From Nitrosomonadales bacterium (GTDB lineage: Bacteria; Pseudomonadota; Gammaproteobacteria; Burkholderiales; SG8-39): a stretch of 64,000 nucleotides of DNA. Under the pieces are notes generated by a model. The model ran no database searches, had not been told where the DNA came from, and saw nothing but the letters and a program-made list of their open reading frames with translations. The DNA lies in the NCBI GenBank assembly GCA_005240145.1, contig SBAS01000115.1, positions 4,188 through 68,187 on the forward strand, read 5' to 3'. A program made the translations under genes and the position numbers. Below are positions 9,718 through 55,542 of the stretch, in pieces (positions within the stretch are counted from its first letter, which is position 1; every line of letters begins with the position of its first letter).

Positions 9718-9728
9718 CGTTTTTCCCC

Positions 9729-11456
<1,728 letters not shown>

Positions 11457-11457
11457 C

Positions 11458-13705: not shown

Positions 13706-13782
13706 GCGCCCGTAGCTCAGCGGATTAGAGTATTGGCCTCCGAAGCCAAGGGTCGTGGGTTCGAATCCCGCCGGGCGCGCCA
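13706..13782 (+). tRNA. tRNA-Arg (anticodon CCG)
   Basis: Acceptor stem GCGCCCG/CGGGCGC, anticodon arm TTGGC-CTCCGAA-GCCAA, T-loop GTTCGAATC, encoded CCA end. Confidence 0.97.
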
Positions 13783-13806
13783 GATTTGCGGGATCACACG
13801 ACCCCC

Positions 13807-39769: not shown

Positions 39770-40379
39770 GCAGTACGGGTTCGCCGAGAAACGTCAGACT
39801 ACGCTGGTCGCGGCGGTAGACGCCGCGTTCGGTCACCACCCAATCCACCGGAATGTCCCAGCTTTGCGGGTGGATGGTCTCGATCCTGGCCATCTCAGAT
39901 GCCACTCCGATGACGGTTGGTTTCTTCGGCATAGAAACTAAAGTCCTATCAAAAAAACCGCCCCCATAGCCCAGGCGGTAACCGGCGCCATCCCAGCCGT
40001 TCATTGGCAGGAGCACGGCGTCTGGAACGATTTCTTTTGAGTTGACCGGGTAAGGGATCTCCAGGGGTCCCAGGGCCGTCTCGACGCCGGGATGCCACTC
40101 GCGGAAAATCAACGGCTGCCTCGGCGCGACGACGACCGGCAGCGCGGTCAACGCGCCGAGCTCGCGCAGCGTTCTTACCAGGTGCCGCGCGTCGTACTCT
40201 GCCCTGATGGGCCAGCAAAAGGCGAGCTTTGCCGAGGCGAGCCCGGGAAACGAGCGCGCGATATGGATGTCGATGCTGTGCCGGTAGCGCTCGAGCGTGG
40301 CGTGATCGAGCGCGGCGCGCGCTGCAATCAGCCGCGTGCGTTCGCTTTTTCGCCAGGCCTTGAGTTGTTCGGCATCCAT
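39747..40379 (-). CDS. 5-formyltetrahydrofolate cyclo-ligase
   Basis: WPIRAEYD, ALPVV, GYRLGYGGGFFDRTL, DIPVDWVVTE. Confidence 0.9.
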   Translation of the reverse strand: MDAEQLKAWRKSERTRLIAARAALDHATLERYRHSIDIHIARSFPGLASAKLAFCWPIRAEYDARHLVRTLRELGALTALPVVVAPRQPLIFREWHPGVETALGPLEIPYPVNSKEIVPDAVLLPMNGWDGAGYRLGYGGGFFDRTLVSMPKKPTVIGVASEMARIETIHPQSWDIPVDWVVTERGVYRRDQRSLTFLGEPVLHETPSLR

Positions 40380-40412
40380 GCAGCGTCAATCGCGCAGTGC
40401 TAAGCTTAGTCC

Positions 40413-42359
40413 ATGATTTTTAGGCGTTTCCTTACTATAGCAGCACTCGCCGGCTGGATCGGCGCTGGAATCGCCGCGCCCAAAGTCCCGCCGGCGGACG
40501 AAGCTCTGCTCAAGGCCCACGACGCGTTTCGCGCCGGCGACGCGGCCAGGCTCGCCAAAGCCGCAGCGCCGCTTGGCCGCCATGTGCTCGCGCCGTACCT
40601 GGAGTACTGGCGGCTGAAATTGCGCCTCGAAGACAAACCCGATGCGGAGGTGCGCACGTTCCTGCTGCGCGAACAGGGCAGCTACGTCGCCGAGCGCCTG
40701 CGCGCGGATTGGCTGAAGGAACTCGGCAAGCGCGCCGACTGGCAGAGCTTCGACCAGGAGCTGCCGCTGCTCGCGCAGGACGACCTGGAACTGCGCTGCT
40801 ACGCCTGGCTCTCGCGCCTGGCGCGCGGCGATGCAGGCGCGTTCGACGAGGCCAAGCCGGTCTGGCTCGAGCCGCGCGAACTGCCCGAGGGCTGCAATAC
40901 GCTGGTCGACAGCATGCTCGAGGCGCGGCGCGTCAGCGTGGACGACGTCTGGCGCCGGGTAAGGCTCCTGTTCGAAAACAACCAGGTCGGCGCGGCGCGG
41001 CGCACGCTCGCCTTCCTGCCCGGGGGCGAGAAGCACGACGAGCGGCAGCTCAACCAGGTGGTCACCGCGCCGAAGATTTTTCTCGCCGGCGCGACGCGCT
41101 TCCTGCACAAGCGCCCGACGCGCGAGATGGCGGTGCTGGCCATGCTGCGGCTCGGGCGCGCCGAACCCGAGGCGGCGGCGGAACTCCTGCGCGGCAAGCT
41201 GGGCGGGAATCTTCCCGCACAGGATGTGAGCTACATCTGGGGCCGTCTCGCCTACGAAGGCGCGCGCAAGCACGCACCCGAGGCGCGCCGCTGGTATGGC
41301 CTGGCGGATGAAATGGCGCTGAACGATGAGCAGCTGGCGTGGAAGGCGCGCACGGCGCTGCGCGCAGCTGACTGGCAGATGGTGCGCGACGCGGTGGACC
41401 GCATGTCGGTGAGCGCGCGCCAGGATCCGGCCTGGGCCTACTGGTACGGCCGCGCGCTCGGCAAGCAGGGGAGCGACGACGGTGCGCGCGCCTACTTCCT
41501 GCGCATCTCGGGGCAGCCGAACTTCTACGGCCTGCTCGCCGCCGAGGAGCTGGGGGCCATGGCCGGCATCCCCGAGCCGTTCCATGTCGCGAGCGAGGCG
41601 GACGTCAGCGCCGCCGGCGCGATCGCCGGCCTCGCGCGCGCGCTGGAGTTGTACCGCCTCGAGCTGCGCGCCGAGGCGACGCGCGAATGGATCTTCACCA
41701 TCCGCAGCATGGACGACGCGCAGCTGCTTGCGGCCGCCGAGGTCGCGCGCCGCGCGGGGATCTTCGACCGCGCCATCAACACGGCCGAGCGCACCTTGAG
41801 CGCGCACAACTACAAGGTGCGTTTCCTCGCCCCCTTCAAGGAAGTGTTCGAAGAGCACGCGCGCGCCTTCGGCCTCGAGGAGGCCTGGGTGCTGGGGCTG
41901 GTGCGCCAGGAGAGCCGTTTCATCGTCAACGCCAGGTCCTCGGTGGGGGCAGCCGGGCTCATGCAGCTGATGCCGGCCACGGCGCGCTGGATGGCGAAGA
42001 AGAACAACGTGAAGAATTTTTCGCCGGCCCGCGTCACGGAAGTGCCGATCAACGTCGCGCTGGGCACGGGCTACCTGAGGCTGGTGCTTGATGACCTGGG
42101 CCACCCGGTGCTCGCTTCGGCCGCCTACAACGCCGGCCCGGGCCGCGCGCGGCGCTGGCGCGCCGACCAGCCGCTGGAAGGCGCCATTTACGCCGAGACC
42201 ATCCCGTTCAACGAAACGCGCGACTACGTGAAGAAGGTGATGGCGAACACCATGTACTACGCGCAGATATTCGACGGTAAGATTGTGCCGCTCAAGGACC
42301 GGCTGGGGCGGATCCCGGCAAGGGCGTCCAACGAGCGGTTCAACGAGGAACTGCCGTGA
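40413..42359 (+). CDS. slt: Soluble lytic murein transglycosylase (Slt70-like)
   Basis: Helical N-terminal region; C-terminal catalytic RQES, GLMQLMP, AYNAGPGRA, ETRDYVKKV. Confidence 0.93.
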   Translation: MIFRRFLTIAALAGWIGAGIAAPKVPPADEALLKAHDAFRAGDAARLAKAAAPLGRHVLAPYLEYWRLKLRLEDKPDAEVRTFLLREQGSYVAERLRADWLKELGKRADWQSFDQELPLLAQDDLELRCYAWLSRLARGDAGAFDEAKPVWLEPRELPEGCNTLVDSMLEARRVSVDDVWRRVRLLFENNQVGAARRTLAFLPGGEKHDERQLNQVVTAPKIFLAGATRFLHKRPTREMAVLAMLRLGRAEPEAAAELLRGKLGGNLPAQDVSYIWGRLAYEGARKHAPEARRWYGLADEMALNDEQLAWKARTALRAADWQMVRDAVDRMSVSARQDPAWAYWYGRALGKQGSDDGARAYFLRISGQPNFYGLLAAEELGAMAGIPEPFHVASEADVSAAGAIAGLARALELYRLELRAEATREWIFTIRSMDDAQLLAAAEVARRAGIFDRAINTAERTLSAHNYKVRFLAPFKEVFEEHARAFGLEEAWVLGLVRQESRFIVNARSSVGAAGLMQLMPATARWMAKKNNVKNFSPARVTEVPINVALGTGYLRLVLDDLGHPVLASAAYNAGPGRARRWRADQPLEGAIYAETIPFNETRDYVKKVMANTMYYAQIFDGKIVPLKDRLGRIPARASNERFNEELP

Positions 42360-43285
42360 AGCACCAGAACATTCTCGTCGTGGGCGGCGCCGGCTTCGTC
42401 GGCCGGCACCTGGTCGCCGCGTTCGCCGCGCGCGGTGCGCGCGTCACCGTGCCGACGCGCCGCCGCGAGCGCGCCAAGCACCTGATCCTGCTGCCCACGG
42501 TGGACGTGGTCGAAGCCGACGTGAACGATGCGAAAGCGCTTGTGGCGCTAGCCGCAGGGCGCGATGCGGTGGTGAACCTCGCGGGGATATTGCACGGCCC
42601 GGATTTCAAGCTGGCGCATGTCGAGCTGGCGCAGTCGATCGTCAACGCCTGCCACCGGGCCGGCGTCAGGCGTTTGCTGCATATGAGCGCGCTCGGCGCC
42701 GATACCGACGGGCCATCCGAATACCTGCGCTCCAAGGGGATTGGCGCGCGCGCGGTGCTCGCTGCCGACGACCTGGCGGTGACCGTGTTCCGCCCCTCGA
42801 TCATTTACGGGCCCGAGGATCGCTTCCTCAACCTGTTCGCGCGGCTCGCCGCCTGGACGCCGCTGTTCGTGCTGGGTTCGCCCGGGGCGCGCTTCCAGCC
42901 GGTCTACGTCGGCGACGTGGTGCGCGCCTTCGTCGCCGCGCTGGACAATGAAGAAGCCGCCGGCAAGAGCTACGATTTATGTGGGCCGAAGGAGTACACG
43001 CTGCGCCAACTGGTCGCACTGGCCTGCGCGATCACCGGCCGGCGCCGCCTCGTTATCGGCCTGCCCGAGGGCCTGTCCTACCTGCAGGCCTGGTCGATGG
43101 AACTGCTGCCGGTGAAACTGCTCACGCGCGACAACCACTATTCCATGCAGGTGCCGAACGTATCCGCGAGCGCGTTTCCGTTCGGCATCCGGCCCGTGCT
43201 GCTGGAAGCCACGGTGCCCTCCTGGCTCGCGCCCGCGGGCCCGCGCGAGCGCTATCCACAGCTGCGCTGGCGCGCGCGGCGCTGA
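42356..43285 (+). CDS. NAD-dependent epimerase/dehydratase (complex I NDUFA9-like)
   Basis: GGAGFVG, HMSALGA, YLRSK, FRPSIIYGPED, FQPVYVGDV. Confidence 0.88.
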   Translation: MKHQNILVVGGAGFVGRHLVAAFAARGARVTVPTRRRERAKHLILLPTVDVVEADVNDAKALVALAAGRDAVVNLAGILHGPDFKLAHVELAQSIVNACHRAGVRRLLHMSALGADTDGPSEYLRSKGIGARAVLAADDLAVTVFRPSIIYGPEDRFLNLFARLAAWTPLFVLGSPGARFQPVYVGDVVRAFVAALDNEEAAGKSYDLCGPKEYTLRQLVALACAITGRRRLVIGLPEGLSYLQAWSMELLPVKLLTRDNHYSMQVPNVSASAFPFGIRPVLLEATVPSWLAPAGPRERYPQLRWRARR

Positions 43286-43297
43286 GGCGAAACGCCG

Positions 43298-44737
43298 ATG
43301 TCCAACGGGGCGCGCATCGACGCGCTGCTCGCAGGCCCGGTGCGCGCGATCAACATTGGTCTCGCGGGTTTCGCGCGCGATCTGGCCGCGTGCGGCGCCG
43401 AGGTGGCGCAGGTAGACTGGGCGCCGCCCGCCGGCGGCAAGCCCGAATTGCTCGCCGCGCTCGAGCGTCTTGCCGCAATGGAATCGGCGATAGCGGCCGC
43501 CAACCAGGCGGTCATCGAGCGCGTGCTTGCCGCCGAACCCGTGCTCGCCGGCGTGCATCGCGCGGACGAGCTGATCCCGGCGCTGGCGGAGCGGCGCCTG
43601 GTGCTGCACACAGGACCCCCGCTCGGCTGGCGCGAGATGTGCGGCCCGCTGCGCGGCGCGGTTTGCGGCGCGCTCGTCTTCGAGGGCTGGGCGGCCGACC
43701 TCACTGCCGCCGAGCGCCTCGCCGCGTCGGGCGAGATCGCGTTCTCGCCCAATCACCACCACGGCGCGGTGGGCCCGATGACCGGCATCACGACGCGCAG
43801 CATGCCGCTGCTCGTGGTCGAGAACCGCGTCGGGCTGGCGAAAGGCGGGGGCAACCGCGCTTTCTGCGCCCTCAACGAAGGCCTGGGCAAGGTGATGCGC
43901 TTCGGCGGCAATGATGCCGAGGTGCTGGCCCGCCTCGCCTGGCTGCGCGACGAATTCGGGCCGCTGCTCGGCAGGGCCCTGGAGCTCGCCGGAGGCATCG
44001 CGCTTGGCCCCTTGATCGCGCGCGGCCTCGCCATGGGCGACGAGATGCACCAGCGCAACGTCGCCTGCACTTCGCTTTTCCTCCGGGCGATCGCGCCCAG
44101 CATGGCCGCTGGTGGCGGACCCTTGGAAAAAGCCTTCGCCTTCATCGCGGGCAACGACCAGTTTTTCCTGAATATCGCGATGGCCATGGGCAAAAGCATG
44201 CTCGATCCGGCGCGGGGTGTGGCCGGCAGCACGATCGTCACCGCGATGAGCCGCAACGGCACCGAGTTCGGCATTCGCGTCGCGGGCACCGGCGAGCGCT
44301 GGTTCACCGCGCCCGTGGAAATGCCGCAGGGCCTTTTCTTTCCGGGCTTCTCCGCGGCCGATGCCAATCCGGACATCGGCGATTCGGCGATCCTCGAGGC
44401 CGTGGGGCTGGGCGCTTTCGCCATGGCGGCGGCGCCCGCGGTCGCGGGCTTCATCGGCGCGGGTGGCTTTGCCGATGCGCTCGCCTATACGCGCGCCATG
44501 GCGGAGATCGCGGTGGCGCGCAATCCGAGGTGGACGATCCCGGCGCTCGAATTCTCCGGCACCGCGACCGGCATCGACGTGCGCCGCGTCATCGAGACCG
44601 GGATCGCCCCGGCGATCAACACCGGAATTGCGCATCGCAGGGCGGGCGTGGGCCAGGTCGGGGCAGGCGTCGCCCGCGCGCCCCTTGCGTGTTTCGAGCA
44701 GGCTTTGCTGGCGCTTGGCGATGCCGCTGGTCGTTAA
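43298..44737 (+). CDS. allG: DUF1116 / AllG(YlbE)-like protein, putative oxamate carbamoyltransferase subunit
   Basis: HTGPP, NEGLGKVMRFG, MGDEMHQRN, DQFFLNIAMA, NPDIGDSA, INTGIAHR, APLACFEQAL. Confidence 0.8.
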   Translation: MSNGARIDALLAGPVRAINIGLAGFARDLAACGAEVAQVDWAPPAGGKPELLAALERLAAMESAIAAANQAVIERVLAAEPVLAGVHRADELIPALAERRLVLHTGPPLGWREMCGPLRGAVCGALVFEGWAADLTAAERLAASGEIAFSPNHHHGAVGPMTGITTRSMPLLVVENRVGLAKGGGNRAFCALNEGLGKVMRFGGNDAEVLARLAWLRDEFGPLLGRALELAGGIALGPLIARGLAMGDEMHQRNVACTSLFLRAIAPSMAAGGGPLEKAFAFIAGNDQFFLNIAMAMGKSMLDPARGVAGSTIVTAMSRNGTEFGIRVAGTGERWFTAPVEMPQGLFFPGFSAADANPDIGDSAILEAVGLGAFAMAAAPAVAGFIGAGGFADALAYTRAMAEIAVARNPRWTIPALEFSGTATGIDVRRVIETGIAPAINTGIAHRRAGVGQVGAGVARAPLACFEQALLALGDAAGR

Positions 44738-46094
44738 CCGCGTCGAGCAGGGCCGCTATCTCGATTCGGTCGCGCTGATGCGCGTATCGCGGCGCCTCGA
44801 GGCGCTGCCGGGCGTGCTCGGCGCGGCCGTGATGATCGGCACACCGTCCAACCGCGCGCTGATGCGCGACGCCGGCCTGCTCGCCGCCGAAGGCCAGGCT
44901 GCCGGCCCGAACGACCTGGTGATCGCGGTGCTCGCGCAGGACGCAGCGGCGGGGCGCGCGGCGCTCGATTTCGCCTTGCAGTCCATGCACGAGAAAGACA
45001 AGGGCTCAACCGCAACGTTTGCTCGCGCGCGCAGCCTTGGCGGTGCGCTCGAATCGCTGGCGCAGGCGAATCTGGCGCTGATTTCGGTTCCGGGTGAGTA
45101 CGCCGCGCGCGAAGCGCGGCGCGCGCTCGAACGCGGGCTGCATGTGATGCTGTTCTCGGACAACGTGCCGCTCGAAGCCGAGGTCGAGCTGAAGCGACTG
45201 GCGGGCGAGAAAGGCCTGCTGATGATGGGGCCGGACTGCGGCACGGCGCTGATCGCGGGGACCCCGGTCGCCTTCGCCAACGCGGTGCCGCGCGGCGACA
45301 TCGGCATCGTGTCCGCCTCCGGGACCGGGTTGCAGGAGGTGTCTTCGCTGATCGCGCGCCTGGGCGGCGGCGTCTCGCACGGCATCGGCGTCGGCGGGCG
45401 CGACCTCGACGAGCGCGTCGGCGCGCTTGCTACGCTGGCTGCCCTCGAGGCTCTTGATCAAGATGAAAGCACGGCGAAGATCATCGTGATCTCGAAGCCG
45501 CCGTCGCCGGCGGTCGCGCGGCGCGTGCTGGAGCGGGTGAAGCGGCTGCACAAGCCTAGCGAGGTGTGCTTCCTCGGCTCAAAAGAGCCGGGGCTTGCAC
45601 GCACGCTCACCGATGTTTCAGAACGCGCCACGGGAAAGAAGATCGCCCCGTTCAGGAGCAGGCTGAAGAAAGGCAAACGCAGGGCAGTGGGGCTCTTCTG
45701 CGGCGGAACCCTGTGCGCCGAGGCGGAACTGATCTTCGGCGGTCGCCGTGGCCATCGTTTTATCGACCTGGGCGACGACGAGTTCACGCGCGGCCGCCCG
45801 CACCCGATGATCGAGCCCGAGTTGCGCAACGAGCACATCGCCGCGGCGCTGAAGGACCCGCGGGTGGGCTTGCTGCTGGTTGATGTTGTGCTTGGCTATG
45901 GATCGCACGAGAATCCGGCGGCAGTCCTCGCGCAGAACGACTTGTCTTCGAAAGTGGTCATCGCCTCGGTGACCGGTACCGATGGCGACCCGCAAGGCTA
46001 CTCGCGCCAGGTCGCGATCCTGCGCTCGGCCGGGGTAGTGGTCGCGCCCTCCAGCGCGCGCGCCGCGGAACTCGCAGCCAGCCTCGTTTCCTAG
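44721..46094 (+). CDS. fdrA: FdrA/AllF-like acyl-CoA-synthetase-fold protein
   Basis: YLDSVALM, ALISVPGEYA, FSDNV, MGPDCGT, SASGTGLQE, GGTLCAEA, DLGDDEFTRGRPHPMI; start ATG 44721. Confidence 0.85.
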   Translation: MPLVVNRVEQGRYLDSVALMRVSRRLEALPGVLGAAVMIGTPSNRALMRDAGLLAAEGQAAGPNDLVIAVLAQDAAAGRAALDFALQSMHEKDKGSTATFARARSLGGALESLAQANLALISVPGEYAAREARRALERGLHVMLFSDNVPLEAEVELKRLAGEKGLLMMGPDCGTALIAGTPVAFANAVPRGDIGIVSASGTGLQEVSSLIARLGGGVSHGIGVGGRDLDERVGALATLAALEALDQDESTAKIIVISKPPSPAVARRVLERVKRLHKPSEVCFLGSKEPGLARTLTDVSERATGKKIAPFRSRLKKGKRRAVGLFCGGTLCAEAELIFGGRRGHRFIDLGDDEFTRGRPHPMIEPELRNEHIAAALKDPRVGLLLVDVVLGYGSHENPAAVLAQNDLSSKVVIASVTGTDGDPQGYSRQVAILRSAGVVVAPSSARAAELAASLVS

Positions 46095-46140
46095 GAGAAC
46101 GCGCCGAACGCGACCAGCGGCGATTCGGGCACGGGCATGG

Positions 46141-47361
46141 TCAGAGTTCGCCGTAGACGCCGAGCGCGGCGTCGACCGCGGCGCCCCGGGGCAGCCTGAA
46201 TCCTTGCGCCGAAAGCACCGCTTCCAGCGCGCCCAGCGTGATCAGCACGGCATCCTCGCGCGCGTTATAGCCCATGGCGCCGATGCGCCAGATCCTGCCG
46301 CGCAGCGGCCCGAAGGAGGTGCCGATCTCGATGCCGAAGTGGCCCAGCAGCGCGCTGCGGGCCTTCTCGCCGTCCACGCCCTGCGGCACGAAGACCCCGG
46401 TGACGTTGGTCATCTTGTGTTTCGGGTCGCCGAAGAGCTTGAGACCCATCGCCTCGAGCCCGCGCGTCAGCGCCCTGGAGGCGAGCGCATGGCGCGCGAA
46501 CGCCTGCGGCAGACCTTCCTGGAGCAGGATGCGGGCGCATTCGCGCGCCGCGTAGAGCATGCTGGTCGCCTCGGTGTGGTGGTTGAGCGCCTTGTCCGAC
46601 CAGTAGTCCATGATCATGGCGAGGTCGAGGTAGTTGCTGCGGATCACCGGACCTTCGCCATCCTGCTGGTTCTGTTCGCGCAAGCCTTGCTCCGTATGAC
46701 GGCGCCGCACGATCGCCCGCTCCGCCCGCTCGTTGAGCGTGAGCGGCGCGGCGCCCGAGGGGCCGCCGAGGCATTTCTGCAGCCCGGCGCTCACCACGTC
46801 GAGCTGCCAGGCGTCGGTGGGCAGGTCCATGCCGCCGAGCGTGGCGGTGGCGTCGACATAAAGCAACGCGTCGTGCGCGCGGCAGATTCGCCCGAGCGCG
46901 GCGAGCGGCTGCGCCATCGTTGTGGAGGTGTCGCCGCGCGAAATGGCGACAAGCTTCGGCTGCTGTTTCTTTATCTCTTTTTCGAGCACCTCCGCCGGAA
47001 AGATCTGGCCCCACTCTGTCTCCACGGTCCGCACGTCGGCGCCCAAGCGCTTCGCGATCTCGACTTTGAGGTGGCCGAAGCGGCCGAACACCGGCACCAG
47101 CACCCGGTCGCCGGGCTCGATCAGCGAAGCGAGCGCCGCCTCGATCGCCGAGCGCGCAGTGCCGTCGATCAGCAGCGTCTGCCGGTTCTGCGTCTGGAAC
47201 ACGCCGCGGTAGAGTTGCGACACCTGCTGCATGTAGCCGCGGAACTGCGGATCGAACTGGCCGAGCAGCGGCGCGCTCATGGCGCGCAGCACGCGCGGGT
47301 CGGCGTTGATCGGCCCGGGGCCCATGAGGAGCCTCGGCCCCGGGTTGATGTCTTCAAACAT
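46141..47361 (-). CDS. pucG: PLP class V aminotransferase, PucG-like (S)-ureidoglycine-glyoxylate transaminase
   Basis: LLMGPGP, LGQFDP, DATATLGG, GLQKCLGGPSG, NHHTEATSMLY, WRIGAMG; ureide gene context. Confidence 0.85.
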   Translation of the reverse strand: MFEDINPGPRLLMGPGPINADPRVLRAMSAPLLGQFDPQFRGYMQQVSQLYRGVFQTQNRQTLLIDGTARSAIEAALASLIEPGDRVLVPVFGRFGHLKVEIAKRLGADVRTVETEWGQIFPAEVLEKEIKKQQPKLVAISRGDTSTTMAQPLAALGRICRAHDALLYVDATATLGGMDLPTDAWQLDVVSAGLQKCLGGPSGAAPLTLNERAERAIVRRRHTEQGLREQNQQDGEGPVIRSNYLDLAMIMDYWSDKALNHHTEATSMLYAARECARILLQEGLPQAFARHALASRALTRGLEAMGLKLFGDPKHKMTNVTGVFVPQGVDGEKARSALLGHFGIEIGTSFGPLRGRIWRIGAMGYNAREDAVLITLGALEAVLSAQGFRLPRGAAVDAALGVYGEL

Positions 47362-48262
47362 GGGAATGATGTTTCAGCCAGTGCCTCGCGATGTCGATAC
47401 GCCGGGTGACCCAGACTTTCTTGTTTCCTACATATTTCAGGAATCTCTCCAGGGAATTGAAACGTCCGGGCCTGCCCGCCAGCCTGCAATGCATGCCGAC
47501 CGACATCATGCGACCGCCTTCGGCGTAGAGGACGTCGAAGGAGTCCTTCAGGTACTGGAAGAACTGCTCGCCGGAGTTGAAGCCCTGCGGCGTGGCGAAG
47601 CGCATGTCGTTCGCGTCCAGCGTGTAGGGCACCACCAGCTGCGGCTTGCCGCCTTTCTTCCTATAGCGCGTGTCGTAGAACGGCAGCTCGTCGCTGTAAT
47701 CGTCGGCGTCGTAGACGAAGCCGCCGTCCTCCACGACCAGGCGGCGCGTGTTGGGACTGGTGCGCCCGGTGTACCAGCCCAGCGGCCTCGACCCCGTGAG
47801 GCGCTTGTGGATCTCGATCGCGCGCTGCATGTGCGCGCGTTCCTCCTCGAGCGGTACCTGCTGGTAGCTGATCCAGCGCCAGCCGTGGCTCGCGATCTCG
47901 TGCTTCGCCTCGAGGAAGGCCTCGACCACCGCCGGGTTGCGTTCCATCGCCATGGCGACGCCGAACACGGTGAGCGGCAGGTCGTATTTTCGGAACAGCG
48001 CCAGCAGCCGCCACACGCCGACCCGCGCGCCGTATTCGTACAGCGACTCCATCGACATGTGGCGCGCGCCCTCGAAGGCCTGCGCGCCGACGATCTCCGA
48101 AAGGAACGCTTCGCTCGCCTTGTCGCCGTGCAGCACCGAGTTCTCGCCCCCTTCCTCGTAGTTGAGGACGAACTGCAGCGCGATGCGCGCGCCGCCCGGC
48201 CATTTCACCCTGGGCGGCGCTGCCCCGTATCCGGCCAGGTCGCGTGGGTAGGTTTCTTTCAA
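47354..48262 (-). CDS. puuE: Metal-independent allantoinase PuuE (polysaccharide deacetylase fold)
   Basis: YPRDLAGYG, FVLNYEEGGEN, SMESLYEYG, HGWRW, GWYTGR, PYTLDANDMRF, GMHCR. Confidence 0.95.
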   Translation of the reverse strand: MKETYPRDLAGYGAAPPRVKWPGGARIALQFVLNYEEGGENSVLHGDKASEAFLSEIVGAQAFEGARHMSMESLYEYGARVGVWRLLALFRKYDLPLTVFGVAMAMERNPAVVEAFLEAKHEIASHGWRWISYQQVPLEEERAHMQRAIEIHKRLTGSRPLGWYTGRTSPNTRRLVVEDGGFVYDADDYSDELPFYDTRYRKKGGKPQLVVPYTLDANDMRFATPQGFNSGEQFFQYLKDSFDVLYAEGGRMMSVGMHCRLAGRPGRFNSLERFLKYVGNKKVWVTRRIDIARHWLKHHSHV

Positions 48263-49500
48263 TCACTCGCTCCGAGCAGGTCAAAGAGCGAGAGTGCGAC
48301 AACTTCGGTCGCCCTGTAAAGGTCGTCGAGCTTCAGGTTCTCGTCGGCGCGGTGGCCGTTCGCCTCCTCCAGCGTGCGCGGGCCGGCGCCGTAGAGCACC
48401 GTGGGTATGCCCGCTTCGCTGTAGTGGCGCGCATCGGTGTAGAGCGGCACGCCACGCGCTTCGATCTCGAGGCCGAACACCGTGCGCGCGCCGGCTTGCA
48501 GTGCCCGCACCAGCCGTTCCTGCCCGGGGCGCGGCACGAACGGATTGGCCAGAAGGATCCTGCGGACTTCGACGCGGATACCCGGCATTTTGCGCACCGA
48601 TTCCTTGATCAGCGCGGTGATGAACTTTTCCGCTGCCCCGGGAATCTCATCGGGTGTGATGCGTCGGTCGAGCCGGAACACCACCCGGTCGGGCACCACG
48701 TTGGTGTTGATGCCGCCGGAGATCAGCCCAACCACCAGGGTCGGGTAGCCGATACCCGGGATCGCCGAAGGCAGCGCGGTGAGCGCCTTGCGGTAGGAAT
48801 ACAGGTCCCCGAGGATCGCCGCTGCCGCCTCCATCGCGTCGTCGCCCTTGTCGGGCTCGGCTGCGTGTCCGGACTTGCCCAGGATCTCCACTTCCAGGTG
48901 CAGGCAGCCGTTGTGGGCGGTGGTCACGGCGTAGGCGAACCCGGCGCTGATCGCATAGTCGGGTTTCGAGATGCCCTGCTCGAGCAGCCACTTCGGGCCG
49001 ATCGCGCCGCCCGCTTCTTCGTCGTAGGTGAAGTGCAGCTCGACGGCTCCTCTCAGTCCGCTGGAGAATTTTTTCAGCGAAAGCAAGGCAAACGCGTAAG
49101 TTGCGAAATCGGACTTCGACACCGCAACCCCGCGTCCGTACATGCGGCCCTCGCGGAGCTCGGCGCCGTAGGGATCGCAGCTCCAGCCCCCTCCCGGCGG
49201 CACCACGTCGCCGTGCGCGTTGAGCGCGATCGTCGGCCCGCCTTCCCCGAACCGTTCCCGCACCACGAGGTTGGTGCACGACATCATCCCGTTTGCCTTC
49301 ACCAGCTCGTTCGGAACCGGGAGACGCTCCACCGCGAAGCCAAGCTCGCCCAGCAGTGTCGCCGCTTTGGCCGCGGAGCGCTCACAGTCGCCGGGCGGAT
49401 TGTCCGAGGGTACCTTGATCAGTTCGGCGAGAAAGCGGATCTGCGCTGCGCGCTCTCCAGACAGGAAATCGTGAATCCGTCTGCGCGCAGCGGTGCTCAT
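48259..49500 (-). CDS. M20/ArgE-DapE family metallohydrolase of unknown specificity
   Basis: NAHGDVVPP, YDEEAGG, GKSGHAA, GGINTNVVPD, C-terminal GHRADE. Confidence 0.85.
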   Translation of the reverse strand: MSTAARRRIHDFLSGERAAQIRFLAELIKVPSDNPPGDCERSAAKAATLLGELGFAVERLPVPNELVKANGMMSCTNLVVRERFGEGGPTIALNAHGDVVPPGGGWSCDPYGAELREGRMYGRGVAVSKSDFATYAFALLSLKKFSSGLRGAVELHFTYDEEAGGAIGPKWLLEQGISKPDYAISAGFAYAVTTAHNGCLHLEVEILGKSGHAAEPDKGDDAMEAAAAILGDLYSYRKALTALPSAIPGIGYPTLVVGLISGGINTNVVPDRVVFRLDRRITPDEIPGAAEKFITALIKESVRKMPGIRVEVRRILLANPFVPRPGQERLVRALQAGARTVFGLEIEARGVPLYTDARHYSEAGIPTVLYGAGPRTLEEANGHRADENLKLDDLYRATEVVALSLFDLLGASD

Positions 49501-50753
49501 ACCCGTGCTTGGGGCCGGAAATTCTCGATAAAGCGCAACAGCACGCGTACTCCGGTTTGCGCATCCTCCGCGGTGATTGCTTCGGCAGGATTATGGCTGA
49601 TGCCCCTCTTGCAGCGCACGAACAGCATGCCGATGTCGCACAGATCGATCATCGCCATGCCGTCGTGGCCGGCGCCGCTCGGCAGCTTGCGAACCGCGAT
49701 GCCCTCGGCTGCGATCGCAGCGCCGATCTGTTCCTGCAGCCACGGCGCGCACTTGGCGACGTTGCCCTCGTGGGTCTTCGAGACCTTGATCGCAACGCCG
49801 CGGCGCTTCGCGATCGTCTCCATCTGCGCGACGACCTCGGTCACGGCAGCGAGGCGCTCTGGATCGCGCGGCGAACGGATGTCGATGGTGAAACGCACCC
49901 GGCCCGGGATTACATTGACCGCCCCGGGAAGCGTCTCCAGCTTGCCGACCGTGCCGACGAGTTCGGGCACCTTCGCGCATCGCTGCTCGATCGCCAGCAC
50001 ACATTCGGCGGCGGCCGCGAGTGCGTCCCGCCTCAGGTTCATCGGCACCGTGCCGGCGTGGCCCGCGATTCCCTCGACCTCGATCGCGAACCGGGTCGCG
50101 CCGTTGATCGCGGTCACCACGCCCACGGGCAGGCCCTCGGCTTCCAGCACCGGACCCTGCTCGATGTGCAGCTCGGCGTAGGCCAGCACGTCCTCGCGCC
50201 GGTGCGCCGCCTGCGCAATGCGCTCGGGATCGAGTCCGGACGCACGCATCGCGGCGCGCATGCTGACCCCGTCCGCGTCCACGCTGTCGAGCACCTCGCA
50301 TTTGAACGTTCCGGCGACGGCGCGGCTGCCGAGCAGGGTCGAGCTGAAGCGCACGCCCTCCTCGTCGGCAAACCCAATGACCTCGATCGCGAATGACAGG
50401 CGCCTGCCGCGCGCGGCGAGGTCTGCGACACATTCGATCGCGCTCACCACGCCGAGCATGCCGTCGTACTTGCCGGCGTCGCGCACCGTGTCTAGGTGCG
50501 ATCCCAACAGCAGCGCCGGCCGCCCGGGCCGCTCGCCCTCGTAGCGCCCGACGACGTTACCGATCGCGTCCAGCTTCGCGCTCATGCCCGCTTCGCGCAT
50601 CCAGCCGAGCACAAGCTCATTTGCCGCAGCCTGCTCACGCGACAGGAATACGCGCGTCAGGCCGCCGGCAAGCTCCGATTGGCAGGCGAGCGCTGCGCAG
50701 CGCTCAAGCATGCGCCGCGCCGACAGACCTGCGTTAACGGCCCGCCGGTTCAC
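49497..50753 (-). CDS. Allantoate amidohydrolase (Zn-dependent, M20 family)
   Basis: GSHLDTV, GKYDGMLGV, ADEEGVRF, ELHIEQGP, GHAGTVPM, SGAGHD, GISHNPAE; start GTG 50753 preferred (ATG 50711 possible). Confidence 0.9.
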   Translation of the reverse strand: MNRRAVNAGLSARRMLERCAALACQSELAGGLTRVFLSREQAAANELVLGWMREAGMSAKLDAIGNVVGRYEGERPGRPALLLGSHLDTVRDAGKYDGMLGVVSAIECVADLAARGRRLSFAIEVIGFADEEGVRFSSTLLGSRAVAGTFKCEVLDSVDADGVSMRAAMRASGLDPERIAQAAHRREDVLAYAELHIEQGPVLEAEGLPVGVVTAINGATRFAIEVEGIAGHAGTVPMNLRRDALAAAAECVLAIEQRCAKVPELVGTVGKLETLPGAVNVIPGRVRFTIDIRSPRDPERLAAVTEVVAQMETIAKRRGVAIKVSKTHEGNVAKCAPWLQEQIGAAIAAEGIAVRKLPSGAGHDGMAMIDLCDIGMLFVRCKRGISHNPAEAITAEDAQTGVRVLLRFIENFRPQARV

Positions 50754-50848
50754 GTCGCAGCCGGCACGACCTTGGGCGCGGCGCCGAATTTCTCCAGTTC
50801 CATCAGCGAGTTCCACAGCCGGGAACCGTTCACCATGAGCGCGGGCAT
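50750..50848 (-). pseudogene. 32-aa 5' remnant of a second Zn-dependent ureido/carbamoyl amidohydrolase
   Basis: MPALMVNGSRLWNSLMELEKFGAAPKVVPAAT* resembles the (I/V)NGxRLWxSLMExAxIGATPKGG N-terminus of N-carbamoyl-amino-acid hydrolases; its TGA overlaps GTG 50753. Confidence 0.65.
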
Positions 50849-50901
50849 GGCGAAATCATACTATCGGGCACGCGCCGCCGTGCTTTTCCGGGAATATTTT
50901 T

Positions 50902-50910
50902 TGCTAGACT
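50902..50910 (+). promoter_or_regulatory. Candidate TG-extended -10 element for the ABC importer operon
   Basis: TGcTAGACT after an AT-rich tract in the divergent intergenic region, about 50 nt before ATG 50960 (RBS GGGAG). Confidence 0.45.
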
Positions 50911-50959
50911 TGCGTCCGCCAGATCGGGTTCGAGCCATCAACCAATTAAGGGAGCAAAT

Positions 50960-52609
50960 ATGCAACGCAAATCGATCGCCCTGACGGTAGCGGCGCTGTT
51001 CGTAGTTGGCGCGCTGCCGTTTGCGCAGGACGCCGGCGCGCAGTCGGTGCTGCGTATCGCCATGACTGCGGCGGACATCCCGAAAACCTCCGGCCAGCCG
51101 GACCAGGGATTCGAGGGCAACCGTTTCACCGGCATTCCGCTCTATGACGCGCTGACGCAGTGGGATCTCTCTTCGGCGGACAAGCCGAGCGTGCTGATTC
51201 CCGGCCTCGCCACCGCGTGGCGAGTGAGCGATACCGACAAGACCAAATGGACTTTCACGCTCAGGAAGGGCGTCAAGTTCCACGACGGCAGCGAGCTCAC
51301 CGCCAACGCCATCGTCTGGAACGTGGACAAGGTGCTGAACAAGGACGCGCGCCACTTCGCGCCCGACCAGATCGGCGTCACGGTGTCGCGCATGCCGAAC
51401 CTGGTATCGGCGCGCAGGATCGACGATTTCACGGTGGAACTCACCACCAAGGAGCCCGACAGCTTCCTGCCGCTCAACCTGACCAACCTCTTCATCGCCT
51501 CTCCGGCGCACTGGCAGAAGAAATACGACGCACTCGCTTCGGTGTCCGACGCCGCCGAACGCGCCAAGCAGGCCTGGGCGGCCTTCGCCGCCGACGCATC
51601 GGGTTCGGGCCCTTTCAAGATGGCGCGCTTCTCGCCGCGCGAGCGCGTCGAGTACGTGAAGAATGAGGCCTACTGGGACCCGAAGCGCCGTACCAAGCTC
51701 GATCGCGTGGTGCTCCTGCCGATGCCGGAGGCGAGCGCGCGCACGGCGGCGCTGCTCTCGGGGCAGGTGGACTGGATCGAAAGTCCCGCGCCCGACGCGG
51801 TGCCGCAGATCAAGCAGAAAGGCTTCATCCTCCACACCAACGCCCAGCCGCACGTCTGGCCCTGGCAGTTTTCCTTCGTGGAGGGCTCGCCGTGGCTCGA
51901 CAAGCGCGTGCGCCACGCCGCCAACCTGTGCGTGAACCGCGAGGAGCTCAAGCAGGCGCTGGGCGGCTTGATGGAGATTCCCAAGGGCACGGTGCCGCCC
52001 GGGCATCCCTGGTGGGGTAACCCGAAGTTCGAGATCAAGTACGACCTGAAGGCGGCGCAGAAGCTGATGGCGGATGCCGGATTTGGGCCCAACAAGCGCC
52101 TGAAGGTGAAAACCTTGACTTCTGCCTCCGGCTCGGGCCAGATGCAGCCGGTGCCGATGAACGAGTTCGTGCAACAGGCACTGCGCGCGTGCTACTTCGA
52201 TGTCGAGCTCGAAGTCGTCGAGTGGAACGCCCTGTTCACCAACTGGCGCGAAGGGGCGAAGGATCCGAAGTCGCGCGGCGCGCATGCCACCAACGTGACC
52301 TTCGCGGCGATGGACCCGTTCTTCGCCATGGTGCGCTTCACCTCCAGCAAGACCCAGCCGCCGGTGTCGAACAACTGGGGCCACTTCGTCAATCCGGAGT
52401 TCGACGACCTGATCGCCAAGGCGCGCACTTCGTTCGACGACAAGGGCCGCGATGCGGCGCTGGCGCGGCTGCATGCGCGCATCGTCGAGGAAGCGCCGTT
52501 CCTTTGGGTGGCGCACGACGTGGGTCCACGCGCGATGAGCTCCAAGGTCAAGGGCGTGGTGCAGCCCAAGAGCTGGTTCATCGATCTCGCGCCGATGAGC
52601 ATGCAGTAA
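50960..52609 (+). CDS. Peptide/opine/nickel ABC transporter substrate-binding protein (SBP family 5)
   Basis: Signal peptide, PGLATAW, FTLRKGVKFHDGS, GSGPFK, DKRVRHA. Confidence 0.92.
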   Translation: MQRKSIALTVAALFVVGALPFAQDAGAQSVLRIAMTAADIPKTSGQPDQGFEGNRFTGIPLYDALTQWDLSSADKPSVLIPGLATAWRVSDTDKTKWTFTLRKGVKFHDGSELTANAIVWNVDKVLNKDARHFAPDQIGVTVSRMPNLVSARRIDDFTVELTTKEPDSFLPLNLTNLFIASPAHWQKKYDALASVSDAAERAKQAWAAFAADASGSGPFKMARFSPRERVEYVKNEAYWDPKRRTKLDRVVLLPMPEASARTAALLSGQVDWIESPAPDAVPQIKQKGFILHTNAQPHVWPWQFSFVEGSPWLDKRVRHAANLCVNREELKQALGGLMEIPKGTVPPGHPWWGNPKFEIKYDLKAAQKLMADAGFGPNKRLKVKTLTSASGSGQMQPVPMNEFVQQALRACYFDVELEVVEWNALFTNWREGAKDPKSRGAHATNVTFAAMDPFFAMVRFTSSKTQPPVSNNWGHFVNPEFDDLIAKARTSFDDKGRDAALARLHARIVEEAPFLWVAHDVGPRAMSSKVKGVVQPKSWFIDLAPMSMQ

Positions 52610-52625
52610 GTCCGCAGGTTCCAGA

Positions 52626-52660
52626 CGGCGGCGGGCATCGCGCCCGCCGCCGCTGTTTTT
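52626..52660 (+). terminator. GC-rich stem-loop after the binding-protein gene (terminator or mRNA-stabilising hairpin)
   Basis: 11-bp stem CGGCGGCGGGC/GCCCGCCGCCG with ATCGC loop, followed by CTGTTTTT. Confidence 0.7.
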
Positions 52661-52684
52661 CGCAAAGCAAAGTTCTCCGCCGCC

Positions 52685-53638
52685 TTGATCCTCTACGCCA
52701 CCAAGCGCGTCCTGCTGACGCTGCCGATCATGCTCGGCGTGACCATCGTCTGTTTCGCGCTCGTGCACCTCGCGCCCGGCGATCCGCTGATTTCGGTGTT
52801 GCCACCCGATGCCTCGCAGTCCATCAAGGAACAGATGATGGCGCTCTACGGCTTCGACCGGCCCTACCACGAGCAATTCCTGCGCTGGCTCTGGCGTGTG
52901 CTGCAAGGCGATATCGGCACTTCCATCCGCACCGGGCGGCCGGTGAGCACGGAAATCAGCAAAGCGGTCGGCAATACGCTGATGTTGGCGGCACTGGCCA
53001 CCTGCATCGGTTTTCTGTTGGGTACGCTGTTCGGTTTTGTCGCCGGCTATTTCCGCGACACCTGGATCGATAAGACCGCCTCGGCGCTGTCGGTGTTCGG
53101 CGTGTCGGTGCCGCATTACTGGCTGGGCATGGTGCTGGTGATCGTTTTCGCGGCGACCTTGGGCTGGCTGCCGCCCACTGGCGCCGGGCCGGGCGGCTCG
53201 GAGGACTGGAAATGGGATTGGGTGCATTTCAAGTACCTCATCCTGCCGGCGGTCACCATGTCGGTGATTCCAATGGGCATCATCGCGCGCACGGTGCGCG
53301 CCCTGGTGGCGGAGATCCTTTCGCAGGAGTTCGTCGTCGGCCTGCGCGCCAAGGGCCTCTCGGAAGTCGGCATCTTCGGTCACGTGGTGAAGAACGCCGC
53401 GCCGACCGCGCTGGCGGTGATGGGCATACAGCTTGGCTACCTGCTTGGCGGCTCGATCCTGATTGAAACCGTGTTCGCCTGGCCGGGCACGGGCCTGCTG
53501 CTCAACGATGCGATCTTCCAGCGCGACCTGCCGCTCCTGCAGGGCACGATCCTGGTGCTGGCGATGTTCTTCGTGGTGCTCAACCTGGCGGTGGACGTGA
53601 TGCAGACCATGCTCGACCCGCGGATCCAGCGTGCCTGA
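52685..53638 (+). CDS. ABC transporter permease (DppB-like)
   Basis: LAPGDP, GDIGTS, PHYWLG, EAA-like loop LRAKGL, ETVFAWPG. Confidence 0.92.
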   Translation: MILYATKRVLLTLPIMLGVTIVCFALVHLAPGDPLISVLPPDASQSIKEQMMALYGFDRPYHEQFLRWLWRVLQGDIGTSIRTGRPVSTEISKAVGNTLMLAALATCIGFLLGTLFGFVAGYFRDTWIDKTASALSVFGVSVPHYWLGMVLVIVFAATLGWLPPTGAGPGGSEDWKWDWVHFKYLILPAVTMSVIPMGIIARTVRALVAEILSQEFVVGLRAKGLSEVGIFGHVVKNAAPTALAVMGIQLGYLLGGSILIETVFAWPGTGLLLNDAIFQRDLPLLQGTILVLAMFFVVLNLAVDVMQTMLDPRIQRA

Positions 53639-54500
53639 GCGCGTGAACGAAATCATCCGCTCGCCGGGTTTCTGGGTCACGGTGTGGCGGCGTTTTCTGC
53701 GCGATCCGGTGGCGCTCGCCGCCGCGCTGGTGGTGCTCGGCTTGATCCTCATGGCGGTGTTCGCGCCCTGGATCGCGCCGCAGGACCCTTTTCAGGGCAT
53801 GTCGCTGCGCCGGCTCAAGCCGCCGGGAACGGAAGGTTATCCGCTGGGCACCGATGAGCTCGGGCGCGACATGCTGAGCCGCCTGATCCATGGCGCGCGC
53901 ATCTCGCTGTTCATGGGCATCGTGCCGGTGCTGTGCGCGCTTTTCATCGGTGCCGCGATCGGCATCGTTGCCGGATACTCGGGCGGCTGGACCAACACAT
54001 TGCTGATGCGCACCGTAGACGTGTTCTTCGCCTTTCCCTCGGTGCTGCTGGCGGTGGCGCTGGCGGGCGCCCTCGGCCCGGGTATGACCAACGGCCTGAT
54101 TGCGCTTACCCTGGTTTTCATTCCGCCTATCGCGCGCGTCGCCGAGAGCGTCACCACCGGCGTGCGCTCGCGCGATTTCGTCGAGGCAGCCAAGGCAAGC
54201 GGCGCGGGCGCGCTGCTGATCATCAGGAAGCACGTGCTGGGCAACGTGCTCGGGCCGATTTTCGTCTACGCCATGAGCCTGGTCGCGGTGTCGATGATCC
54301 TCGCCGCCGGCCTGTCCTTCCTCGGCCTGGGCGTGAAGCCGCCACAGCCTGACTGGGGCCTGATGTTGAATACCCTGCGCACCGCGATGTACACGCAGCC
54401 GCTCCTGTGCGCGCTGCCGGGGGTGATGATCTTCATCACCTCGATCTCCTTCAACCTGATGACCGACGGGCTGCGCTCGGCGATGGACATCAAGGCCTAG
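53631..54500 (+). CDS. ABC transporter permease (DppC-like)
   Basis: LGTDELGRD, GARISL, FVEAAKASGA, LSFLGLG, PDWGLML. Confidence 0.92.
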   Translation: MPERVNEIIRSPGFWVTVWRRFLRDPVALAAALVVLGLILMAVFAPWIAPQDPFQGMSLRRLKPPGTEGYPLGTDELGRDMLSRLIHGARISLFMGIVPVLCALFIGAAIGIVAGYSGGWTNTLLMRTVDVFFAFPSVLLAVALAGALGPGMTNGLIALTLVFIPPIARVAESVTTGVRSRDFVEAAKASGAGALLIIRKHVLGNVLGPIFVYAMSLVAVSMILAAGLSFLGLGVKPPQPDWGLMLNTLRTAMYTQPLLCALPGVMIFITSISFNLMTDGLRSAMDIKA

Positions 54501-54505
54501 AGCGC

Positions 54506-55522
54506 ATGCGCGAATCCGACAACGTGCCGCTGCTCGAAGTGCGGGGCCTGGTAAAGCACTTCCCGGTGAAAAGGAACCTGCTTGGCCGCGCGACCAGCGT
54601 CGTCTCGGCGGTCGACGGCGTGGATTTCGACCTGCGCCAGGGCGAAACGCTGGGCGTGGTGGGTGAGTCGGGCTGCGGCAAATCGACCACCGCCCGGCTG
54701 CTCATGCACCTTATCGAGCCCTCCGCGGGAACCATCCGCTTCGGCGGCAAGACGGTCGGCAGCGCGGCACTGCCGCTCAAGGAGTTCCGGCGGCAGGTGC
54801 AGCTCGTGTTCCAGGACAGCTACGCCTCGCTCAACCCGCGCCTGACGGTGGAGGAATCGATCGCTTTCGGGCCGATGGTGCATGGCACGGCGCGCACGCA
54901 AGCGCAGGCGCGCACGCATGCGCTGCTCGAGCGGGTCGGCCTCGACCCGCGGCGTTTCGCCGGCCGCTTCACGCACGAGCTCTCCGGCGGGCAGCGCCAG
55001 CGCGTCAACATCGCGCGTGCGCTCGCACTGCAGCCGCGCATCCTGGTGCTGGACGAGGCGGTGTCGGCGCTCGACAAATCGGTGGAGGCGCAAGTGCTCA
55101 ACCTGCTGCTGGATCTCAAGCAGGAGTTCGGCCTGTCATACGTCTTCATCAGCCACGACCTCGAAGTGGTGCGTTTCATGGCCGCGCGGGTGCTGGTGAT
55201 GTACCTCGGGCGCGTGGCCGAGCTCGCGCCTACCGAGGCGCTCTACACCGACAGCCGGCACCCCTACACCACCGCGCTGGTGGGGTCGCTCCTGTCGATG
55301 AACCCGGACCGGCGCACCGAGGCGGCGCCGATCAGCGGCGATCCGCCCAATCCGATCGACCCGCCGCCGGGTTGCCGGTTTCATACCCGCTGTCCGCACG
55401 CCGAACCCGTCTGCGCGGCCGGCGTGCCGGGGCTGGGCATGCGCGCGCAGGAGCATTGGGTCGCCTGCCACATGGGCGACCCGATGTCCGGGCACAGCAA
55501 GGCGCCGGCGCGGGCCGCGTAA
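54506..55522 (+). CDS. ABC transporter ATP-binding protein (DppF-like)
   Basis: GESGCGKS, LSGGQRQR, LDEAVSALD, C-terminal CRFHTRC; start ATG 54506. Confidence 0.93.
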   Translation: MRESDNVPLLEVRGLVKHFPVKRNLLGRATSVVSAVDGVDFDLRQGETLGVVGESGCGKSTTARLLMHLIEPSAGTIRFGGKTVGSAALPLKEFRRQVQLVFQDSYASLNPRLTVEESIAFGPMVHGTARTQAQARTHALLERVGLDPRRFAGRFTHELSGGQRQRVNIARALALQPRILVLDEAVSALDKSVEAQVLNLLLDLKQEFGLSYVFISHDLEVVRFMAARVLVMYLGRVAELAPTEALYTDSRHPYTTALVGSLLSMNPDRRTEAAPISGDPPNPIDPPPGCRFHTRCPHAEPVCAAGVPGLGMRAQEHWVACHMGDPMSGHSKAPARAA

Positions 55523-55542
55523 CCGGCGGCATCCAGGCACCC

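Follow-up and report, generated by a model that had tools for sequence, protein, structure and literature searches.

We analysed a 64,000-nucleotide stretch of DNA (contig SBAS01000115.1 of assembly GCA_005240145.1; hereafter the window) from a soil/groundwater betaproteobacterium whose genome comprises 130 contigs and is 96% complete. Six genes at 43298-50816 are the subject of this report. Here a ureidoglycine aminotransferase (UGXT), orthologous to HpxJ of Klebsiella and PucG of Bacillus, lies beside allG and fdrA, homologues of two subunits out of the three in the E. coli oxamate transcarbamylase AllFGH. The cluster thus joins two halves, UGXT and AllFGH, that have been characterised only apart. 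We consider it reasonably probable, judging from the genes and their company, that oxalurate made by UGXT is cleaved by the adjacent AllFGH-type FdrA/AllG to oxamate and carbamoyl phosphate. An initial annotation of the window had proposed that this organism couples transamination to an energy-conserving phosphorolysis of oxalurate. Synteny and the lack of AllD, AllE and AllA speak for the coupling; in departure from that proposal, AllH and carbamate kinase are encoded away from the locus, and transamination would be one branch only. The joining is present in this organism, but it is no private trait: the UGXT-FdrA/AllG pairing is widespread in uncultured soil and groundwater bacteria.

How are the six genes arranged? 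The window has a G+C content of about 67% and its mechanical lists of open reading frames are crowded, while family scans gave a clear gene set. On the plus strand, allG (43298-44737; 479 aa; DUF1116 model PF06545, 291 bits against a cut-off of 27) is followed by fdrA, the allF homologue (44721-46094; 457 aa; NF004760, 461.7 bits against a cut-off of 433; PF00549). The start of fdrA was chosen in the analysis, and the chosen start overlaps the allG stop by 17 nt. The other four genes are on the minus strand. UGXT, a class-V aminotransferase of 406 aa (46141-47361), is convergent with fdrA, with 46 bp between them. Next come a PuuE-type allantoinase, of the kind that converts allantoin to allantoate (47354-48262; TIGR03212, 508.4 bits against a cut-off of 424.6), an ArgE/DapE-type M20 hydrolase that we call M20b (48259-49500; TIGR01910, 202 bits, under the cut-off of 217.6), and an M20 enzyme resembling allantoate amidohydrolase (AAH), predicted to turn allantoate into ureidoglycine, CO2 and NH3 (49497-50816; NF006775, 572.6 bits against 479). 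The initial annotation had described allG-fdrA as converging on an operon for an amidohydrolase, an M20 protein, PuuE and PucG, and all six genes lie where it placed them. Overlaps of 4-8 nt between the four minus-strand genes fit the expectation for one operon. Neither a terminator and promoter scan of 40000-51200 nor folding of the 46-bp spacer between fdrA and UGXT gave anything above shuffled expectation.

The identity of the aminotransferase is central to this reading. Its alignments with K. pneumoniae HpxJ (3NNK; 552.7 bits) and with B. subtilis PucG (3ISL; 443.6 bits) span the full length, compared to 281 bits for the best alanine-glyoxylate aminotransferase (AGXT). The motif with the lysine that binds pyridoxal phosphate, QKCLGGPSG, is kept; it is identical in HpxJ and close to the QKCLSVPSG of PucG. 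Across 151 genomes of the order, scores form two clear groups, more than 570 bits for orthologues and at most 267 bits for a generic paralogue; in this genome the generic AGXT paralogue lies on a different contig, C83. Furthermore, UGXT shares an operon with AAH both in the window and in relatives. Judged by these alignments, the window aminotransferase is a true UGXT orthologue.

Is the association of UGXT with FdrA/AllG conserved? The window AllG was used as query against one genome per species, giving 80 loci at 58-81% identity onto which the window proteins were mapped. In the reverse scan, UGXT was searched against metagenome contigs, giving 80 UGXT-centred loci. Close Burkholderiales share a layout in which genes for a lytic transglycosylase (SLT), an SDR-family protein, AllG and FdrA converge on genes for AllH, carbamate kinase, UGXT, PuuE and AAH, followed by OHCU decarboxylase and 5-hydroxyisourate (HIU) hydrolase; five of these loci have no carbamate kinase gene and keep allH. 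Seven alphaproteobacterial loci are collinear, in the order AAH-UGXT-AllG-FdrA and usually then carbamate kinase and AllH, and a gammaproteobacterial locus (Granulosicoccaceae) reads AAH-carbamate kinase-UGXT-AllG-FdrA. Carbamate kinase, AllH, FdrA or AllG is found downstream in 45 of the 49 UGXT metagenome loci with at least 1 kb of downstream sequence, and FdrA or AllG in 16 of the 20 UGXT loci with at least 5 kb. The sample of 151 genomes of the order has AllG in 13, UGXT in six and both in four, one of these with only a weak AllG match. Even where window-type AllG is not next to UGXT, 12 of 27 genomes encode UGXT elsewhere, against a background of 6/151 genomes of the order. One window-type AllG locus without UGXT (L025) has only housekeeping and unrelated genes nearby and is uninformative on the substrate. 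The other sampled genome of the same genus (G072) has no AllG, no UGXT orthologue and no M20b. The co-occurrence of pucG with fdrA/DUF1116 that the initial annotation had suggested checking is therefore strongly positive: the genes are neighbours in two gene orders, in Burkholderiales, Alphaproteobacteria and Granulosicoccaceae. The link is strong, not absolute.

A tree of AllG sequences agrees with this picture. The window AllG falls in a well-supported, UGXT-linked clade of 23 rows from Burkholderiales, 15 of which have UGXT nearby; the remaining rows are mostly contigs that end soon after fdrA. This purine-locus clade is separate from the other AllG-FdrA pair of the genome, described below. 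The conserved neighbourhood with UGXT and carbamate kinase is what supports oxalurate phosphorolysis by the window pair.

The two proteins are built somewhat differently from their E. coli counterparts. Gene order is reversed, allG preceding allF, and the window FdrA lacks the C-terminal ~45 residues of E. coli FdrA. That segment is carried by AllG, residues 15-48 of which match residues 511-544 of E. coli FdrA; its probable place is the interface between the subunits. The other paralogue pair of this genome likewise has the FdrA C-terminal segment at the AllG N-terminus.

FdrA contains the CoA-binding and CoA-ligase domains of the succinyl-CoA synthetase alpha subunit (Pfam). Could the pair then be an acyl-CoA-synthetase-like enzyme that activates oxamate, oxalate or a related acid, with no transcarbamylation at all? 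The domain content and a prediction made before 2024 (PMC3364942) point in that direction. Purified E. coli AllFGH, however, has oxamate transcarbamylase activity, and deletion of any single gene blocks oxamate formation (PMC11326118); moreover, the consistent pairing with carbamate kinase in relatives fits carbamoyl phosphate as the product. We regard a CoA ligase as very improbable, and the transcarbamylase reading is retained below.

Could oxalurate be made here in the way that E. coli makes it? Whole-genome searches gave, for ureidoglycine aminohydrolase (TIGR03214), a best score of 30 bits against a cut-off of 200, from a 124-aa cupin, and no match for ureidoglycolate lyase (PF04115). The AllD models found two Ldh_2-family proteins at 171 and 146 bits against 496, one of them a YbiC-type dehydrogenase. 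Allantoicase also gave no match in the whole genome, but the control for that search gave no match anywhere either. The observation in the initial annotation that the window has no allD, ureidoglycolate lyase or ureidoglycine aminohydrolase thus holds and extends to the whole genome at its 96% completeness, in which the E. coli way of making oxalurate is not recognisable by these models.

Neither AllH nor carbamate kinase is encoded in the window. Most relatives have both in the purine locus. Where are they in this genome? A search (tblastn) with E. coli AllH found no match in the genome, and the Pfam model found a single AllH, at 73.8 bits, on contig C98, so that a BLAST search by itself would have wrongly suggested that AllH is missing. 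The same contig has the sole carbamate kinase found in the genome (NF009007, 359 bits against 266). This second locus (L003, 2197-9792) consists of allH (8797-9792, minus strand), a GntR/FCD regulator gene (8086-8784, minus strand), a divergent gene for an amidase-signature enzyme that is clearly an allophanate hydrolase (6207-8015, plus strand; 848 bits against 487) and a minus-strand fdrA-allG-carbamate kinase block (6100-2197). Its AllG and FdrA are 51% and 44% identical to those of the window, and the two pairs are about equally far from E. coli. The layout of allophanate hydrolase with FdrA, AllG and carbamate kinase is conserved in five relatives.

Copy numbers suggest how the window pair might obtain its third subunit. 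All 12 related genomes searched have exactly one AllH match, and seven of the 12 have two or more copies of AllG. This genome and the genome (G151) of locus L004 have AllH at the second locus and not at the purine locus, while four relatives (G152, G154, G157 and G159) show the reverse, with AllH in the purine locus and none at the allophanate-hydrolase locus. The single AllH of genomes with at least two AllG copies argues for one AllH serving both FdrA/AllG pairs, supplied in trans; this would be the simplest reading of the copy numbers. The spacer between the C98 fdrA and allophanate hydrolase genes contains two TTGTA(C/T)AC half-sites typical of GntR/FadR operators. No operator shared between this spacer and the divergent promoter region of the AAH operon and the neighbouring ABC transporter was found: the window promoter region lacks the half-sites, and the sole common word is a GC-rich 12-mer. 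There is thus no sign of co-regulation of the window and C98 promoters.

An arrangement without AllH and carbamate kinase is rare; among the 80 AllG-centred and 80 UGXT-centred loci, L004 is the only one besides this locus to have it, and its AllG is 82% identical. We conclude that the purine locus of this genome and of its closest relative has lost both genes, making it a rare derivative. Does this loss leave allG-fdrA idle? AAH and M20b would then hydrolyse the ureides to glyoxylate, UGXT would serve mainly to convert glyoxylate to glycine, and oxalurate would be excreted or removed by an unrelated amidase. Besides the rarity of the arrangement, this explanation can call on the site being a hot spot of gain and loss, with relatives that have UGXT but no allG-fdrA (L090, L105) or neither, and on the usefulness of glycine formation as a glyoxylate sink in a genome without glyoxylate carboligase. 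Against it, neither reading frame is broken, and the two genes have diverged no faster than their counterparts in relatives that have AllH in cis: the window AllG is 73-82% and FdrA 65-70% identical to relatives, and the same range is seen among relatives with AllH in cis. The arrangement has also persisted, being common to the two lineages, AllH and carbamate kinase do exist in the genome, and the four relatives with the reversed distribution argue for routine sharing. An orphaned pair is, in our judgement, unlikely. Decay of allG-fdrA in this genome was considered separately and is unsupported by the pairwise identities to relatives.

The two M20 enzymes bear on how ureidoglycine is made and used. 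The AAH-like protein exceeds its NF006775 cut-off and scores 263.8 bits with the AllC model TIGR03176, whose cut-off is 597.75. Sites said to discriminate AAH from ureidoglycolate amidohydrolase (UAH), as given in the portion of PMC13751858 that cites Shin et al. 2014, are a Gly at the position of UAH Tyr423 and a QXR motif. The GAGHD of the window protein (Gly) aligns with the RAYHD of UAH (Tyr423), and at the motif it has A-T-R compared to Q-R-R in E. coli, keeping the Arg and not the Gln. In 39 of 43 related loci, which lack M20b, the AAH-like protein is the only candidate for making ureidoglycine. On that ground we accept it, with reservation, as a putative allantoate amidohydrolase.

M20b has more than 100 environmental homologues at 76-87% identity. 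It directly follows the AAH gene in four metagenome contexts, with or without UGXT, and its contexts often include gcl-hyi-glxR-glxK (glyoxylate carboligase, hydroxypyruvate isomerase, tartronate semialdehyde reductase and glycerate kinase). In the 151-genome sample, 13 genomes, each of a different genus, have an orthologue; apart from this genome there are 12, and in 11 of these M20b belongs to a purine cluster, mostly next to AAH with no UGXT. The canonical cupin ureidoglycine aminohydrolase occurs in only two of the 151 genomes and is missing from most genomes with M20b-AAH clusters (L085, L088, L090, L091, L177-L188). Given its conservation beside AAH in purine clusters and the rarity of the cupin enzyme, M20b probably performs a hydrolytic step after AAH, on ureidoglycine or ureidoglycolate, toward glyoxylate. 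We found no description of a ureidoglycine or ureidoglycolate amidohydrolase of this type in the accessible literature. Transamination would consequently be a branch and not the sole exit, and the amino acceptor may come from the cluster itself. A true glyoxylate carboligase is absent from this genome, where the top hit is 33% identical compared to 66-79% for real orthologues, and so glycine formation by UGXT would be a sensible sink for glyoxylate. M20b as a replacement of AllH and carbamate kinase was considered and rejected: L147 has M20b together with carbamate kinase, AllH, FdrA and AllG, and L148 and L151 have M20b with carbamate kinase.

Taken together, these assignments predict the following route; homology and gene context are the basis for each catalytic step in it, for a shared AllH and for what M20b would do. 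Allantoin would be converted to allantoate by PuuE, and the AAH-like enzyme would remove one ureido group to give (S)-ureidoglycine. Part of the ureidoglycine would yield glyoxylate through M20b and spontaneous decay, and this glyoxylate would feed UGXT, which would convert it with ureidoglycine to glycine and oxalurate. The window FdrA/AllG, with the C98 AllH in trans, would then cleave oxalurate with phosphate to oxamate and carbamoyl phosphate, and the C98 carbamate kinase would use carbamoyl phosphate and ADP to form ATP, NH3 and CO2.

Several observations weigh against this reading. Identity to the E. coli enzyme is only 53% for AllG and 43% for FdrA (over 491 aligned positions), the C98 pair is about equally close, and which of the two pairs handles oxalurate cannot be told from sequence alone. 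E. coli needs AllH, yet AllH is not in cis at the window locus. Oxamate has no assigned fate in the proposed route. The closest solved relative of the AAH-like protein is an L-carbamoylase (3N5F; 327.7 bits), ahead of plant UAH (~232-235 bits) and E. coli AAH (~187-190 bits). No UGXT at all is found in 15 of the 27 genomes with window-type AllG not beside UGXT, so the module is not strictly tied to it, and the close relatives L090 and L105 keep UGXT with no allG-fdrA at this site, so UGXT can evidently work without them.

Some of these points would also suit a route with the steps in another order, in which the window FdrA/AllG phosphorolyses another ureide, such as allantoate or ureidoglycolate, and the AAH-like protein, as a carbamoylase, or M20b decarbamoylates oxalurate. 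The pair is distant from E. coli AllFG and has a long branch in the tree; the AAH-like protein is most like an L-carbamoylase and lacks the Gln of the QXR motif; allantoate cleavage that yields carbamoyl phosphate and is coupled to carbamate kinase has a precedent (PMC4016543); and the family also occurs in non-purine settings, for example beside allophanate hydrolase (PMC12625717). On the other hand, the sole characterised family member acts on oxalurate/oxamate (PMC11326118), and UGXT, which is known to produce oxalurate, is the neighbour most tightly conserved. Moreover, the AAH-like protein carries the two residues, Gly and Arg, that make room for the second ureido group of allantoate and, as noted, is the sole ureidoglycine candidate wherever M20b is missing from the related loci. 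We think this order of steps rather unlikely. The predicted route through UGXT-derived oxalurate is probably real, an expected joining of known parts.

A broader proposal, which we make tentatively and hold to be well short of probable, is that AllF/AllG form a family of phosphorolytic 'ureide lyases'. Each paralogous pair would have a carbamoyl substrate of its own, oxalurate from UGXT for the pair at the purine locus and a compound related to allophanate or biuret for the pair at the second, and the pairs would share one AllH encoded at either locus. M20b would in addition be an undescribed ureidoglycine/ureidoglycolate amidohydrolase that replaces the cupin ureidoglycine aminohydrolase and UAH or the lyase in Burkholderiales.

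allG-fdrA and the AAH operon are the core of a larger purine/ureide catabolic cluster. On the left, every close Burkholderiales locus has two genes ahead of allG; in the window these are a lytic transglycosylase gene (SLT; 40413-42359, plus strand; family scan) and an SDR/NAD-dependent epimerase-family gene (42356-43285, plus strand; PF01370), the latter 12 bp from allG. The SDR gene is thus a conserved neighbour outside the module, and SLT-SDR stay in place where allG-fdrA are missing (L090, L105). When the interval between SDR and PuuE (43286-47361 of the window) is compared with its equivalents in L005, L009, L090, L105 and the contig of P0009, it proves to be a hot spot at which genes are gained and lost, with five states: AllG-FdrA-AllH-carbamate kinase-UGXT; AllG-FdrA-AllH-UGXT; AllG-FdrA-UGXT (here and in L004); UGXT only; and short open reading frames only.

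On the right, divergent from the AAH operon, a Dpp/Opp-type ABC transporter (50960-56523, plus strand; binding protein, two permeases and two ATPases; Pfam) may import ureides, not peptides or nickel. Its binding protein is found again beside AAH-M20b-PuuE in L004 (56% identity) and in genome G121 (75%). A BMP-type nucleoside transporter also lies right of the AAH operon, making two ABC transporters in the region altogether. A 242-aa protein with no NCBIfam match is encoded (56523-57251, plus strand) between the stop of the last ABC ATPase gene, where its frame begins, and the OHCU decarboxylase gene just downstream. By tblastn it weakly matches, at 37% identity, a stretch of L091 overlapping a PF01177 (Asp_Glu_race) gene, and it gave no match to the racemase-family gene of L085. 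Genes for OHCU decarboxylase (57290-57781, plus strand; TIGR03164, 161 bits against 96; PF09349), HIU hydrolase (57783-58136, plus strand; TIGR02962, 137 bits against 87) and guanine deaminase (58183-59499, minus strand; TIGR02967, 602 bits against 375) follow.

Related clusters hold further genes. In glyoxylate-carboligase-type clusters, a 123-aa cyclophilin-like protein (PF04126) is encoded directly after AAH-M20b (L085 10251-10622; L091 8166-8537; L088 16304-16675); it has no homologue in the window's genome and may be a further component of the ureide pathway. In L088, an M20b-type cluster with no FdrA/AllG, UGXT is flanked by genes for a PurM-superfamily (AIRS/AIRS_C) protein and a 356-aa protein without Pfam matches (11207-12268 and 13734-14804). 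Homologues of these flanking proteins occur at 69% identity in this genome, on contigs C44 and C113.

How new is the route? The chain from ureidoglycine through oxalurate to oxamate and carbamoyl phosphate has already been anticipated (PMC5270733), and a metagenome study reads the same route from gene screens (bioRxiv 10.1101/2021.09.08.459499). The initial annotation had thought the combination undescribed; the coupling at gene level appears to be so, but the reaction chain was in print. We found no report of a conserved UGXT-AllFGHK operon in the open literature, and an earlier mention of UGXT beside fdrA/ylbE/ylbF in Huynh & Stewart 2023, French & Ealick 2010 or Ramazzina 2010 is possible.

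What does the coupling add? A fate for UGXT-made oxalurate has been proposed only in Klebsiella, as hydrolysis, and the genes of oxamate transcarbamylase have been known only since 2024 and from E. coli alone, an organism that reaches oxalurate by another way, via AllD. A conserved UGXT-AllFGH operon is a testable gene-level route, predicted to recover glycine, ammonia and one ATP per allantoate-derived ureido group. The route is apparently common in uncultured soil and groundwater Proteobacteria, and it bears on the recycling of purine and ureide nitrogen and on the annotation of FdrA/DUF1116/DUF2877 genes. One AllH for two FdrA/AllG pairs, and an M20b tied to allantoate amidohydrolase, are leads for enzymologists that are more novel than the main route.

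Among known systems, the closest for the second half of the route is the oxamate branch of the E. coli ALL pathway (AllC-AllE-AllD-AllFGH-AllK), in which AllF, AllG and AllH are all required for oxamate transcarbamylase and the operon ends with carbamate kinase (Kim & Kim 2024, PMC11326118). The window resembles it in that FdrA and AllG pass the family models, the presumed substrate is oxalurate, a putative AAH would act upstream and carbamate kinase is present in relatives. In contrast, oxalurate here would come from UGXT transamination, the genome having neither the AllE nor the AllD of the E. coli way; PuuE takes the place of AllB as allantoinase; allG precedes allF; the C-terminal segment of FdrA is on AllG; and AllH and the kinase are off-locus. 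In nitrifier genomes, allFGHK lies beside biuret and allophanate hydrolase genes (allFGHK-atzF; PMC12625717). On C98, allophanate hydrolase is likewise paired with FdrA-AllG-carbamate kinase, and AllH is there too; the counterpart of the nitrifier loci here is therefore the C98 paralogue pair and not the window pair.

For the first half, the closest is the HPX pathway of Klebsiella, a genus without AllFGHK (PMC11326118). In the account of it that PMC12625717 gives, citing Huynh & Stewart 2023, HpxK and HpxJ are followed by the hydrolytic HpxY and HpxW. Allantoate amidohydrolase, putative in the window, is followed by ureidoglycine aminotransferase in both systems, and the window UGXT matches HpxJ over its full length (552.7 bits). 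Whereas oxalurate is described as hydrolysed in Klebsiella, UGXT in this genome and its relatives is coupled to a predicted phosphorolytic FdrA/AllG(/AllH) and carbamate kinase. The predicted removal of a ureido group by phosphorolysis with recovery of ATP has a parallel in the ureidoglycine carbamoyltransferase and carbamate kinase of Rubrobacter xylanophilus (PMC4016543). The carbamoyltransferase there, a member of the ATCase/OTCase family, takes allantoate as its substrate (PMC4016543), while the FdrA/DUF1116 type considered here is unrelated. The Puc system of B. subtilis (PucH-PucF-PucG; 3ISL) has the same branch point as predicted here, AAH and UGXT, giving glycine and oxalurate from ureidoglycine and glyoxylate. 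A control search found no AllG in B. subtilis, and no downstream oxalurate enzyme has been assigned there; for that step the window cluster supplies a candidate.

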